From the IMG/VR virus record IMGVR_UViG_2541047873_000007: 34,634 bases of DNA; one strand, 5' to 3'. This document shows positions 1-33,553 of the stretch, in pieces. Below the pieces are notes generated by a model. That model was not told where the DNA came from and ran no database searches. It saw only the letters and a program-made list of their open reading frames with translations. This DNA comes from a virus. Taxonomy: Duplodnaviria > Heunggongvirae > Uroviricota > Caudoviricetes. The position numbers were made by a program, and so were the translations under genes. Every line of letters begins with the position of its first letter. The first letter of the stretch is position 1.

Positions 1-321
1 CGCCTTGCCGGCTGCCAGGTCGTATGCAGCCTTGACCGCTTTTGGTGTGGCGGCCAGCGTTTCAGAGGTGCTGTTGGTGGCACTGCTCAGTTGGGTGAAC
101 CCCTTAGCTGTCAGTGTCGCGTCCGGGTGGTTACGGGAACGTACGTGTTCAGCCAGTGACTGTGCGGCTTCCTCCGTTTTCTTCTTCAGCCATTTCGTCC
201 TGTTTGCCAGTTGCCGGGGGGCTCGATTTGATATCCCGTCTGCACCACCCAGAACCGGATCTGATGTCTCCAGTTGATAGATATTTTCTTCCCACTTTTC
301 TGTTTCATTCAGGTTTCCCAT
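1..321 (-). CDS. Tail fibre protein, N-terminal part (gene continues beyond window start)
   Basis: Reverse-complement translation from ATG at 321-319 gives MGNLNETEKWEEN...HPDATLTAKGFTQLSSATNSTSETLAATPKAVKAAYD, the conserved tail-fibre N-terminal motif; no stop before the window edge. Not in the ORF track. Confidence 0.85.
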   Translation of the reverse strand, partial: MGNLNETEKWEENIYQLETSDPVLGGADGISNRAPRQLANRTKWLKKKTEEAAQSLAEHVRSRNHPDATLTAKGFTQLSSATNSTSETLAATPKAVKAAYDLAAGKA

Positions 322-323
322 AA

Positions 324-902
324 TCAACTGCTCCCGTGGTTATAACTGCCATCATGGATGGCGGTATTGTTATAGCGAATGGCCACAGACTGATACTCCA
401 GGCTGGCCAGATGGCAGCGGGCCGGTGCAAATGCAGCCAGCGTCTGACGCAGCATCGCGGCCTGATCGTTAGTAATGGGCTGTTTCAGAATAACGCGATA
501 AACTGCCCAGGCGGCTGCATCTCCATGAACAAACAGTCCGTTATAGCTGCGATTGCCGTCGTAACTGAGACGACCTGTGCCTTCAATCAGATCCACTTCA
601 CCAAAGCCAAAACGGCGGATAACTTCCCGGATTGACCACGGCGTCCCTTTATACCGGTGCAGTTCGATGGCTGCTTTTATAAGCATGCGGCGAACATCGT
701 CCGATTCCGCCAGCTCCCAGCCATCGCCAGACAGTGAGAACTGCTCGCCCAGCCATGGCAGCGCAGAACTGTCGACGATATCGACGAGAAAGACCATCAG
801 TACGCTCAGGTCGATGTTATCCAGCCGTCCTGCCAGTCTTCCCAGCGTCCTGAGACTGATATCACCCTCAAGCGGTGGCGGGAGTTGTAATGGCTCAGTC
901 AT
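324..902 (-). CDS. Baseplate/tail protein (Mu gp48 / P2 gpI-like)
   Basis: 192 aa; sits between the baseplate J-like gene and the tail fibre; start overlaps the upstream stop. Confidence 0.55.
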   Translation of the reverse strand: MTEPLQLPPPLEGDISLRTLGRLAGRLDNIDLSVLMVFLVDIVDSSALPWLGEQFSLSGDGWELAESDDVRRMLIKAAIELHRYKGTPWSIREVIRRFGFGEVDLIEGTGRLSYDGNRSYNGLFVHGDAAAWAVYRVILKQPITNDQAAMLRQTLAAFAPARCHLASLEYQSVAIRYNNTAIHDGSYNHGSS

Positions 903-1998
903 CAGACACTCCAGTCATGTTAAGAGTGATTGCCGTACAGTTTGCCCATTCGTTTTCTGCCACCACCCTCAGTGCCGGTGTCACCAGTTCAACCTGGTAC
1001 ACCCCGGAAACGGACAATGCACTGATAATCTGGCTGGGGACAATATCACGCCCCAGCGTGGCGGCACGTGATGCCACCCAGTTCTGTATGGCGCTGTTAG
1101 CGGCATCTTTTACAGACCTGGCATCCTGATCACGATAGATCGTAATCCTGGCTTCAATGGTGTAATCCACCTTCACTGGTGTTTTAGCCCGCACTGTATC
1201 AGTGAGTGGCCTGACTTTCTCATCAGAGCAGAAACTCTCTACCAGCGTGAGAACACCGCCGTCCGGCAGACCGGTACTGAGCAGCGGATACAGATCTACG
1301 GTCCCGGGAACCGGGGAAAGCACAGCAACATCGACAATGTTGGGATGGGCCTGCATGGCATGAAAGCGGTATGCGCCACGGCTTCCGGCATTGGTGAATG
1401 ACTCCGGGGCCAGCCTGATACGCTCCCGGAGCCTGTCATCGTCTTCCTGTTCTGAACCGCCGGAACTGGCCGTCAGATTGCTCACCAGCAGGTCGACGTT
1501 ATCAATCTCATCGAGTAACTGACTGACCTGCGCAGGTTGCCAGCCGTTACCAGCGGTACCGGGTTCGGTACAGGTGGACGTGACATTGACCAGCAGCAAT
1601 CCGGCCTTCAGTACCACATTTGTATCGGTGGCAAAAATAACGCTGTCGGAAGCGCTGACGCGGGTGCCTGCCGGGATCAGCACATCAATGGCCAGTGCCT
1701 CATCTACGGAGAACTGGAGCGTGGTGGTGGCAGGCTGCGCGGCAAGACGGTATACACCAACCAGTTCACCGAGGTAATCAATCATCGGCTCACGGGCAAA
1801 GGCGACCAGATTCTGCTTTGCTGCCTCCTGTACCGCAACCCTGACCAGCATTTCGCGATAGGCCCACAGATCAATCAGCAGACGTTCTGCCTGTGCCGGG
1901 TACAGCGTTTTGCCGGTATCCGCTTCATACTTCGCAATCATTTCTGCCGTGATTTTGTCGGCATCGCGTTCAATAAAATCGGGTTCTGTCAGCGCCAT
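895..1998 (-). CDS. Baseplate J-like protein (Mu gp47-like)
   Basis: 367 aa; size and position after the gp25-like wedge protein. Confidence 0.7.
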   Translation of the reverse strand: MALTEPDFIERDADKITAEMIAKYEADTGKTLYPAQAERLLIDLWAYREMLVRVAVQEAAKQNLVAFAREPMIDYLGELVGVYRLAAQPATTTLQFSVDEALAIDVLIPAGTRVSASDSVIFATDTNVVLKAGLLLVNVTSTCTEPGTAGNGWQPAQVSQLLDEIDNVDLLVSNLTASSGGSEQEDDDRLRERIRLAPESFTNAGSRGAYRFHAMQAHPNIVDVAVLSPVPGTVDLYPLLSTGLPDGGVLTLVESFCSDEKVRPLTDTVRAKTPVKVDYTIEARITIYRDQDARSVKDAANSAIQNWVASRAATLGRDIVPSQIISALSVSGVYQVELVTPALRVVAENEWANCTAITLNMTGVSDD

Positions 1999-2336
1999 AG
2001 CAGCTCCTGAGTCCGGGTCTGTCCGTCTGAGCCTTTCCAGCTCACCCGGAGCGTAAGATGTTCGCCGTCGACGGCGGGTTTAACTGACATAAGCTGGCAG
2101 CGGGGCTCCCAGCGCCGGATGGCATCGACGGATTCGCGCACCACATGCGGAATGGCCCGGTCTACAGGCCAGTCGATATAAAGATGCAGATTGCTGCCGA
2201 ACTCCGGGCGATGCGGGTCGCTGCCGCGGGGAGTCCGCAGGATAATTTGAATCGCCTGCCGGATATCATCCAGCCCCCGGACAATTTCGCCGGGAGCCTG
2301 CAGGGCTGGTTGCCAGAATACTGAGGTCGTTTTCAT
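1989..2336 (-). CDS. Baseplate wedge protein, GPW/gp25-like (Mu gp46-like)
   Basis: 115 aa with ...GSDPHRPEFGSNLHLYID... typical of the gp25/GPW family; ATG at 2336. Confidence 0.7.
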   Translation of the reverse strand: MKTTSVFWQPALQAPGEIVRGLDDIRQAIQIILRTPRGSDPHRPEFGSNLHLYIDWPVDRAIPHVVRESVDAIRRWEPRCQLMSVKPAVDGEHLTLRVSWKGSDGQTRTQELLWR

Positions 2337-2367
2337 GGGGGCAGTATTGCCCCCGTGCGGGAACGCT

Positions 2368-2389
2368 GATATTAAAGGCGTTTAAGAAG
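2368..2389 (-). promoter_or_regulatory. Late promoter/activator-site motif A (GATATTAAAGGCGTTTAAGAAG), upstream of the gp25-like gene
   Basis: One of four copies of a 22-bp motif confined to intergenic DNA upstream of late operons; a hairpin (2337-2353) lies between it and ATG 2336. Confidence 0.5.
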
Positions 2390-2390
2390 C

Positions 2391-32579: not shown

Positions 32580-32580
32580 T

Positions 32581-33030
32581 ATGCAGAAAAAACGCCTGAT
32601 ACAGCTTATCCATATTGCCCGTAATGAACTGGGTATGGATGAAGACACCTACCGCCAGATGTTACAGGGGCTGACCGGTAAAGCCTCAACCAAAGGAATG
32701 GATACCACACAACTAAACTGCGTGCTGGAATCCATGAAAAAGAAAGGCTTTCGCGTTAAACCAGCCAGAAAAGCCAGCTCCGGTTTACCGCTGGATAACC
32801 ATCCGCAGTCCAGGAAAATTCGTGCGCTATGGCTTGAAATGGCTGCTGCCGGCATTGTTCGTGACCGTTCAGAAAATGCATTAGCGAGGTGGATCAAGCG
32901 GGAAACGGGCATCAGCGCCCTGCGCTGGCTCAGTACTGAACAGGCAAGCAGTGTTATTGAGAAACTGAAGAAGTGGCAGCGCAGAGCTGCGGGAGTCAAA
33001 CATGAGCGACCTGAATCAGTTTCGAAGTAA
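32581..33030 (+). CDS. GemA-like regulatory protein (Mu gp16 family)
   Basis: 149 aa; position immediately upstream of mor; AGGAG RBS. Confidence 0.65.
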   Translation: MQKKRLIQLIHIARNELGMDEDTYRQMLQGLTGKASTKGMDTTQLNCVLESMKKKGFRVKPARKASSGLPLDNHPQSRKIRALWLEMAAAGIVRDRSENALARWIKRETGISALRWLSTEQASSVIEKLKKWQRRAAGVKHERPESVSK

Positions 33031-33391
33031 GGGGCCGGAACTCCTGGTGGAACTGGCACAGCATACCTCTGAGACCGTTCGCGAGATTATTGATATTGAG
33101 CCCGAAGTTGCCGACCAGATTGGTCAGGCCGTCGCGAACCGAATGATGCAGGTCTGGGGCGGGCAAAACGTTTATTTCCCGATGGGCATGGTATGGAAGG
33201 TCAGTCAGCGCGACCGGGAAATCTTCAGGGAGTTTAACGGACGCAACCACCACGAACTGGCCCGCAAATTTGGTGTTTCGCTTCAGTGGGTCTACAGCGT
33301 GGTTAAGCGGGTAAGAAAAGAAGAACTGGATCGGATGCAGGGCAAGCTATTTGCTGATGAACCCGATGCAGATACGGAGAAAAAAGAGTAA
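33002..33391 (+). CDS. mor: Mor/C-family transcription activator
   Basis: 129 aa; C-terminal ...QVWGGQNVYFPMGMVWKVSQRDREIFREFNGRNHHELARKFGVSLQWVYSVVKRVRKEE matches the Mor/C HTH region. Confidence 0.8.
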   Translation: MSDLNQFRSKGPELLVELAQHTSETVREIIDIEPEVADQIGQAVANRMMQVWGGQNVYFPMGMVWKVSQRDREIFREFNGRNHHELARKFGVSLQWVYSVVKRVRKEELDRMQGKLFADEPDADTEKKE

Positions 33392-33400
33392 TATCTGCAA

Positions 33401-33428
33401 TCAGGCTGGCGCGAGTTCTGTTTTTTTT
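33401..33428 (+). terminator. Possible intrinsic terminator after mor (GC-rich segment then T8)
   Basis: CAGGCTGGCGCGAGTTCTG followed by TTTTTTTT; stem imperfect. Confidence 0.25.
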
Positions 33429-33480
33429 CGGGCCGGTCTGATTTTCACATACTGTAAGGTTATTGCATATTCCTCCTAGT

Positions 33481-33530
33481 CTCTTCCCATTTTGACCCAG
33501 TTCTTCCCATAAATATCTCACTTATTCCCT
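33481..33530. repeat. Three 10-bp direct repeats (CTCTTCCCAT, TTCTTCCCAT, CTTATTCCCT) at 20-bp spacing near the prophage end
   Basis: Repeats start at 33481, 33501 and 33521, last one about 23 bp from the proposed terminus; candidate transposase-binding sites. Confidence 0.4.
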
Positions 33531-33553
33531 GTCATTTATCTCAAGTCTAATCA

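Follow-up and report, generated by a model that had tools for sequence, protein, structure and literature searches.

The 34,634-nucleotide stretch IMGVR_UViG_2541047873_000007 (the whole of it is here referred to as the window) raises the question of what kind of transposable phage carries its late genes leftward and its early genes rightward, with the repressor gene between the two blocks. A sequence-only reading had proposed a Mu-like phage with its early arm inverted relative to Mu, i.e., a BcepMu-type organisation, together with a non-MuA transposase, a TniB-like ATPase and an accessory island that it could not place in that family. The analysis presented here leaves little doubt that 33.55 kb of the window are the right-hand part of a BcepMu-type transposable temperate myovirus prophage with a full length of about 37.5 kb, inserted in yjcS of Escherichia coli. 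The element is already known and represents an ordinary, previously described kind of prophage.

The proposed layout was confirmed by the open reading frame (ORF) map, in which about 49 genes form two blocks, the late genes reading leftward and the early operon, from the proposed ner gene to mor, reading rightward to the element end, with the repressor gene in between (Table 1). The contrast drawn with Mu agrees with the Mu annotation, where every gene except c is co-directional, whereas the early arm of the window lies on the opposite strand. The translated window genes were compared by blastp with all annotated BcepMu (AY539836) and Mu (AF083977) proteins, and 37 of the 49 matched BcepMu gp01 to gp52 with conserved order and orientation and with 31-76% amino-acid identity; the BcepMu-type organisation is thereby borne out gene by gene. 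The transposase, ATPase, repressor, gp16-type protein, GemA and Mor are among these matches, with identities of 38-68%. The two gene clusters diverge from an interface with lysogeny control genes of the gp16/gp17 type, and they include a TerL homologous to that of Mu, lysis genes in a holin-SLT-Rz/Rz1 cassette, and P2-like tail genes, among them homologues of gpD, X, U, V, W, J, and I. Family features were drawn from PMC2771037 (citing Summer et al. 2004) and PMC2628397. In BcepMu-like viruses, genes 1-13 and genes 17-52 occupy opposite strands, and lysogeny control lies where the two groups meet; these viruses also have a terminal CA, a TerL like that of Mu, a lysis cassette of holin, endolysin and Rz/Rz1, and a tail resembling that of P2 (PMC2771037). 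The window matches the published description on each listed feature. It also shares with BcepMu the pairing of an rve transposase with an AAA+ ATPase, the gp12 and gp10 genes 5' of the transposase gene, the final position of GemA and Mor, and Mu-type packaging genes. Unlike the window, which has a Mu Gam, BcepMu carries SSB and HU as semi-early genes, and the immunity-linked cargo of the two differs. BcepMu further has a terminal acyltransferase and lacks a G-segment-like fibre switch (PMC2771037); the E. coli relatives, by contrast, encode an invertase and alternative fibre genes in the part beyond the window.

Close relatives of the element are widespread. Among complete E. coli genomes, a prophage of E. 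coli Z0117EC0055 aligned to window positions 1-33558 in one block at 99.7% identity, and a megablast search against deposited phages returned Escherichia phage PhiKM (PQ738613; NCBI genus Bcepmuvirus) at 98.9% and the Klebsiella phage KP12 clone KP12_2 (OM835952) at about 86% identity. PhiKM and the RefSeq prophages of E. coli Z0117EC0055, M9682-C1, and FDAARGOS_1077 share the gene order and the right end with the window at 98.9-99.7% nucleotide identity, while KP12_2 is about 84-89% identical across most late and transposition genes. The transposase-ATPase module was found in 638 of the 5426 complete E. coli genomes, i.e., about 12% or roughly one in eight, with one to three copies in each. 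The BcepMu family was reportedly described by Summer et al. in 2004, enterobacterial relatives included. Bcepmuvirus prophages are commonly listed in papers on E. coli ST131 and on induced gut isolates (induction: PMC12629997). As a discovery the element carries low weight, given a family known since 2004, near-identical prophages that are common, and a 99%-identical phage already deposited.

The element had been taken to span positions 1-33553. This holds exactly for the right end, since phage matches stop at 33553 and host DNA begins at 33554, but position 1 is merely the window edge; identical prophages run about 4.0 kb further left, through the remainder of the tail-fibre gene, a fibre-assembly gene, inverted alternative fibre genes and a serine recombinase/invertase. 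The phage sequence terminates in ...ATCA at 33553, and the corresponding left TGAT... was seen solely in identical prophages elsewhere. Three complete copies, of 36,419, 36,420, and 37,566 bp, occupy sites in gspL, between flhA and rayT, and in irp2. All three start with TGATGCGCCGCGCGATAAATG (TGATGCG...) and end with ...TCTAATCA, and they are surrounded by the 6-bp target duplications CCCAGG, CCCCGG, and CTCAGG; the target duplication of Mu is 5 bp. The paired TCTTCCCAT repeats at the right end are candidate transposase-binding sites. The yjcS junction of the window was absent from all 5426 complete E. coli genomes searched, and the left end of this copy is predicted to read 5'-TGATGCGCC, after a stretch of yjcS ending in CCCAGA.

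When metagenome contigs were scanned for exact matches to the right end, 27 contigs with 25 different flanks were found, and the window, the complete genomes and these contigs together gave 29 distinct right junctions. The many distinct junctions and the 6-bp duplications therefore indicate transposition rather than site-specific integration. Target preference over the 29 junctions is weak, namely, a pyrimidine at position 3 and a purine at position 5. A strong target-site consensus was considered on the basis of the first four junctions, which are alike (CCCAGG, CCCCGG, CTCAGG, and CCCAGA), and was rejected as it disappeared with all 29. E. coli C 237-04 (NZ_CP109921; loci L003 and L006) carries a single near-identical prophage with mismatched flanks. 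The left flank, ATTTTT, adjoins dgcM, and the right flank, CGTGTA, adjoins a truncated glycoside hydrolase gene beside gadC. These flanks suggest that host DNA was deleted or inverted in association with transposition, and because they do not match, this copy was left out of the target-duplication analysis.

It is improbable that the copy in the window is a defective or cryptic remnant that no longer transposes or forms particles. In favour of such a reading, the 4 kb on its left lie outside the window, and the C 237-04 flanks suggest rearrangement in one related copy; however, all 37 BcepMu homologues in the window are full length, its 99.7% identity to copies at many different sites implies recent mobility, a 98.9% identical genome has been deposited as a phage, and gut isolates have yielded Bcepmuvirus prophages on induction (PMC12629997). 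Two points nevertheless weigh against the assignment to a BcepMu-type transposable prophage, or limit how far it reaches. This copy has its left end and its left target duplication beyond the window, so that it can be called only probably complete and active. A strict ICTV genus rule asks for at least about 70% nucleotide identity genome-wide. In a rough blastn comparison (not VIRIDIC), only 10,265 of the 33,553 bases (about 31%) aligned to BcepMu, at 65-70% identity. Because so little of the DNA aligns at this level, strict membership of Bcepmuvirus under that rule seems doubtful despite the NCBI label on PhiKM. The family-level relationship to BcepMu is secure.

A composite origin, in which a late-gene element and a transposon-like early element from two adjacent or recombined prophages were joined at about 22400-25100, can be practically discounted. 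The GC content, 53-60% across the window, does fall to 42-45% between about 23000 and 26000, and the low-GC stretch is swapped for unrelated DNA in PhiKM and KP12. This replacement, however, marks the stretch as an exchangeable immunity module, which better explains the low GC. A search tolerating two mismatches found the end motif at a single place in the window, 33533-33553, and thus the second set of ends between 22400 and 25100 that two adjacent prophages might have left is absent from the window. BcepMu has the same order across the junction, with holin, variable genes, the gp17 repressor and gp16, and in three independent insertions one pair of 6-bp duplications encloses the entire unit of 36.4-37.6 kb. 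Equally little can be made of a true Mu relative of the Muvirus lineage with a recently inverted early arm: Gam (62%), TerL (49%), F (48%), GemA, and Mor are common to Mu and the window, but MuA, MuB, Ner, and c have no detectable similarity in it, the tail is P2-type, the endolysin is an SLT enzyme, about 12 of the 49 proteins match Mu at all, and the layout, which BcepMu, a distant phage of Burkholderia, also has, is thus ancestral to the family and no recent inversion.

The comparison with Mu is consistent with this. Both are transposable temperate myoviruses of about 37 kb with TG...CA ends, and about a dozen of the 49 genes matched Mu by blastp, the portal (28%), G, and TerS in addition to those named above. 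The features that define Muvirus (MuA, MuB, Ner, c, and a co-directional order) were not found, in that blastp gave no matches to the four proteins and the early arm lies on the opposite strand. Mu also differs in having a separate C activator and another endolysin and tail.

The accessory island that had seemed unplaceable exists, but it is the exchangeable immunity module at the position of BcepMu gp17-gp20. In PhiKM, another repressor, a Dam methylase, a full-length P-loop gene and further genes replace window positions 22909-25072, and identity is just 82% over 25073-26478. Alignment with PhiKM places the recombination junction at about 22909, inside the P-loop gene, whose relatives are 242-247 aa long. 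KP12 differs from the window over 22381-25364 and likewise has another repressor and a Dam methylase. We infer that the repressor gene and the genes of the 328-aa and 196-aa membrane proteins would form one lysogenic operon of three genes. Features of the 328-aa protein are a GDVGNVVSGDVTI motif at the N-terminus, a cytoplasmic domain of helical build, a single transmembrane (TM) helix and a periplasmic alpha/beta domain; its AlphaFold model shows two confident domains on either side of the TM helix; a Foldseek search of this model against the PDB gave nothing below E 0.1. Its homologues are confined to Enterobacterales. The cytoplasmic domain resembles Flk, an inhibitor of the flagellar export switch that is anchored in the membrane, at a level below the cut-off (NF007987, E 3e-12), and the periplasmic domain is homologous to KP12_283 (E 5e-17), a stand-alone lipoprotein that lies next to the different repressor of KP12 and corresponds to this domain only. 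Homology between the 328-aa protein and BcepMu gp18 was considered and rejected, as the two are alike in architecture without significant sequence similarity. No Pfam, NCBIfam or PADLOC match was found for the 196-aa protein, and PADLOC on the island gave no defence-system match: the P-loop protein reached a marginal E of about 0.01, and neither membrane protein gave any hit.

The C-terminal tail of the repressor, HGDVLGNVIKGNVTIG (24613-24680), resembles the N-terminus of the 328-aa protein, NGDVGNVVSGDVTIH (24560-24616). BcepMu gp17 and gp18 carry a comparable pair of sequences, HGSVGQAVKVEGNL and KPVGQAIQAGEANI, and the KP12 repressor has no such tail, its partner having no cytoplasmic domain. 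The best guess for the 328-aa protein is an envelope function expressed in the lysogen, such as superinfection exclusion. Only as a speculative and rather unlikely proposal might the 328-aa and 196-aa proteins be regarded as an uncharacterised lysogenic-conversion or superinfection-exclusion module that could target the flagellar export apparatus, or incoming phage at the envelope, and could signal to the repressor.

In the early operon, the first gene stands where the sequence-only reading placed ner, but its product has no detectable similarity to Mu Ner and belongs to the gp16 family of helix-turn-helix (HTH) proteins (TIGR04111); it is a positional analogue of Ner rather than a homologue. 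The two ORFs between this gene and the transposase gene (25366-25674 and 25685-26599), which match phrog_1368 and phrog_1748, are real but are not additions to the family plan, since as homologues of gp12 (34%) and gp10 (41%) they belong to the family core. Phage KS10 likewise has a gp10-like gene directly 5' of its transposase gene (PMC2628397). The DUF3102 protein gave an AlphaFold model whose mean pLDDT of 50 was too low for a fold search, and a PDB sequence search with it returned nothing.

The transposase is a non-MuA DDE enzyme, as had been proposed, with 68% identity to gp09, an rve domain and no similarity to MuA in a pairwise test (E 0.45). It is about 26% identical to IS481-family transposases over about 60% of the protein and has sub-threshold NCBIfam IS481 and IS21 matches that score well short of the family cut-offs (67 bits vs 224). 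Such distant relatives fit the published placement of the BcepMu transposase, an rve-type enzyme, in the Tn552-IS1604 family (PMC2771037). The rve catalytic core is shared with IS481 (including IS1604) and Tn552-type transposases, but the window enzyme has about twice their length and an AAA+ ATPase as its partner. This ATPase, a presumed transposition target or activator protein, matches phrog_296, which is annotated as 'DNA transposition protein', and showed no similarity to MuB in a pairwise test (E 2.4). The label TniB-like was not upheld by the Pfam scan, which gave AAA_22 and AAA_16 and no TniB model; the best NCBIfam match is an ExeA-like PEP-CTERM ATPase below cut-off, and the RefSeq name is ExeA family protein. 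As a functional analogy the label stands, in that an AAA+ partner gene lies directly 3' of the DDE transposase gene. Neither the transposase nor the ATPase gave a meaningful match in PDB sequence searches. Further downstream, a small semi-early ORF (30950-31246, + strand) matches the C-terminal part of a PHROG profile of MazG-like nucleoside triphosphate pyrophosphohydrolases and has no Pfam match.

Regarding regulation, the 20-nt motif TYYTAANNNNSWTTAAWATC precedes the holin, protease/scaffold, tail chaperone and gpW-like genes. Further copies with at most one mismatch were absent from the window, a count that is partly circular as the pattern was built from these four sites. Independently of this count, the motif is kept at all four positions in KP12, BcepMu gp21, gp32, and gp49 are preceded by GCCGATTAAAAGA or GGCTTTAATATC, and the core loosely resembles the dyad of the Mor-dependent middle promoter of Mu; the TYYTAANNNNSWTTAAWATC sites are candidate Mor-dependent late promoters. 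With just one Mor/C-family gene present, a two-step cascade from early to late transcription is the simplest model.

By homology with BcepMu and analogy with Mu, the life cycle probably proceeds as follows. In the lysogen, the repressor, made together with the two membrane proteins, would silence the divergent early promoter at about 25049-25077. Upon induction, the early operon would produce the gp16-type regulator, the winged-HTH and DUF3102 proteins, the transposase and the ATPase, and the latter two would copy the genome by replicative transposition at the TG...CA ends with their GAGATAAATG-type sites, generating 6-bp duplications. The same operon would then produce Gam, GemA, and lastly the Mor-family activator, which would turn on four late units on the opposite strand, namely, lysis and packaging, head, tail tube and tape measure, and baseplate. 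Finally, the Mu-type terminase would package headfuls with host flanks; virion DNA of BcepMu-like viruses carries random host DNA at both ends (PMC2771037).

Several observations concern the late genes and the part to their left. The tape-measure gene contains three in-frame tandem copies of a 261-bp repeat (5823-6618). Its product has 983 aa in the prophage copies L007 and L008, and PhiKM has a sequencing gap at the repeat; tail length may vary among prophage copies. Past a GGGGGA run near 8598-8603, the tail assembly chaperone gene is overlapped by an extension in frame +1/-2 that encodes a 29-aa acidic peptide, and a programmed frameshift at this run is likely; the frame relation is that of the -2 shift reported for Mu, unlike the -1 shift of P2. 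Within the Rz-like gene, out of frame, lies an Rz1 o-spanin gene whose product is an 88-aa proline-rich protein with a lipobox (MKKVRAIPLSACLLAVSC...), left unannotated in the RefSeq copies. To the left of the window part, the serine recombinase and the oppositely oriented alternative fibre and assembly genes occur in varied arrangements among the E. coli relatives (L003, 2234-6321; L007, 4714-8082; L008, 3305-6674; L009, 2230-6485), and this region is a Mu G-segment-like host-range switch. A tRNA search of the window found none, and an Rfam search of the whole window at gathering thresholds found no RNA family.

Table 1. Features of the window, ordered by position (identities are to BcepMu proteins unless stated otherwise).
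Feature	Coordinates	Strand	Evidence
Tail-fibre gene, 5' part, 107 codons, cut by window edge	1-323	-	48% to gp52 N-terminus
Baseplate/tail genes, P2-type	324-5222	-	46-63% to gp51-gp45, collinear; RefSeq names agree in identical prophages
I-like; J-like; W/gp25-like; V-like	324-902; 895-1998; 1989-2336; 2391-2987	-	
D-like; X-like; U-like	2984-4138; 4126-4341; 4338-5222	-	
20-nt motif TYYTAANNNNSWTTAAWATC, four copies	22364-22383, 14897-14916, 8980-8999, 2368-2387	-	Intergenic gaps ahead of late blocks
Tape-measure protein, 1070 aa	5222-8434	-	31% to gp44
Tail assembly chaperone	8592-8927, overlapping extension to 8510	-	31% to gp41
Small hypothetical gene	9025-9306	-	
Tail tube	9309-9830	-	67% to gp40
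Tail sheath	9830-11257	-	76% to gp39
Head-tail connector genes, gp38-gp35 homologues	11247-12748	-	42-53% to gp38-gp32 across 11247-14841
Major capsid protein	12758-13711	-	
Protease/scaffold (Mu I equivalent)	13726-14841	-	
Mu-type head/packaging genes	15056-19952	-	45-67% to gp31-gp27; Pfam Phage_Mu_Gp27 E 1e-56
G; F; portal; TerL; TerS	15056-15514; 15517-16365; 16319-17815; 17815-19410; 19407-19952	-	
gp26 and gp25 homologues	19952-20589	-	blastp
Rz i-spanin	20586-21236	-	Embedded Rz1 lipoprotein, 20624-20890
SLT endolysin	21220-21960	-	SLT E 2e-14
Holin	21963-22313, longest ORF to 22346	-	Holin_2-3 E 1e-41
P-loop protein, 158 aa, 3'-truncated allele	22444-22920	+	phrog_3787 positions 1-157 of 242; RefSeq 'ABC transporter ATPase'; full-length in PhiKM
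Terminator-like hairpin, end of repressor operon	22939-22956	-	Consensus match alone
196-aa membrane protein, third repressor-operon gene	22958-23548	-	phrog_12025 full length; glycine-rich and C-terminal hydrophobic segments
328-aa membrane protein	23630-24616	-	Translationally coupled to repressor (ATGA overlap)
HTH repressor, cI/Cro-type, gp17 homologue	24613-25074	-	38% to gp17; HTH_31, HTH_3
Candidate early promoter TTGACA-17-CATAAT (25049-25077)	25048-25081	+	Near-consensus match, facing the early operon; overlapping inverted repeat is a candidate operator
Small HTH protein, gp16 family	25125-25313	+	TIGR04111 94 bits vs cut-off 34; 45% to gp16
Winged-HTH protein, gp12 homologue	25366-25674	+	34% to gp12; HTH_IclR
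DUF3102 helical protein, gp10 homologue	25685-26599	+	41% to gp10; DUF3102
DDE (rve) transposase, gp09 type	26603-28372	+	68% to gp09; rve match
AAA+ (AAA_22/ExeA-like) ATPase, gp08 type	28383-29549	+	59% to gp08; AAA_22 E 4e-20; phrog_296
Semi-early genes	29552-32579	+	Gam 29849-30379 (62% to Mu Gam), DUF2786/DUF7168 protein 31473-32156, seven small ORFs (PHROG, Pfam)
GemA homologue	32581-33030	+	Pfam GemA E 8e-41; 44% to gp02
Mor/C-family late activator, sole one	33002-33391	+	Pfam Mor E 1e-43; 54% to gp01
Right phage end	33392-33553	+	Ends ...GAGATAAATG-type site (reverse complement)...TCTAATCA-3'; two direct repeats TCTTCCCAT
Host flank, yjcS (alkyl sulfatase) fragment interrupted by insertion	33554-34634	-	100% identity to yjcS of many E. 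coli genomes from 33554

For E. coli, the practical meaning of this BcepMu-type prophage is that it transposes and can disrupt genes, gspL and irp2 among them, yjcS being inactivated by the insertion in the window. In addition, the membrane proteins of the immunity module may alter the phage susceptibility or the motility of lysogens.

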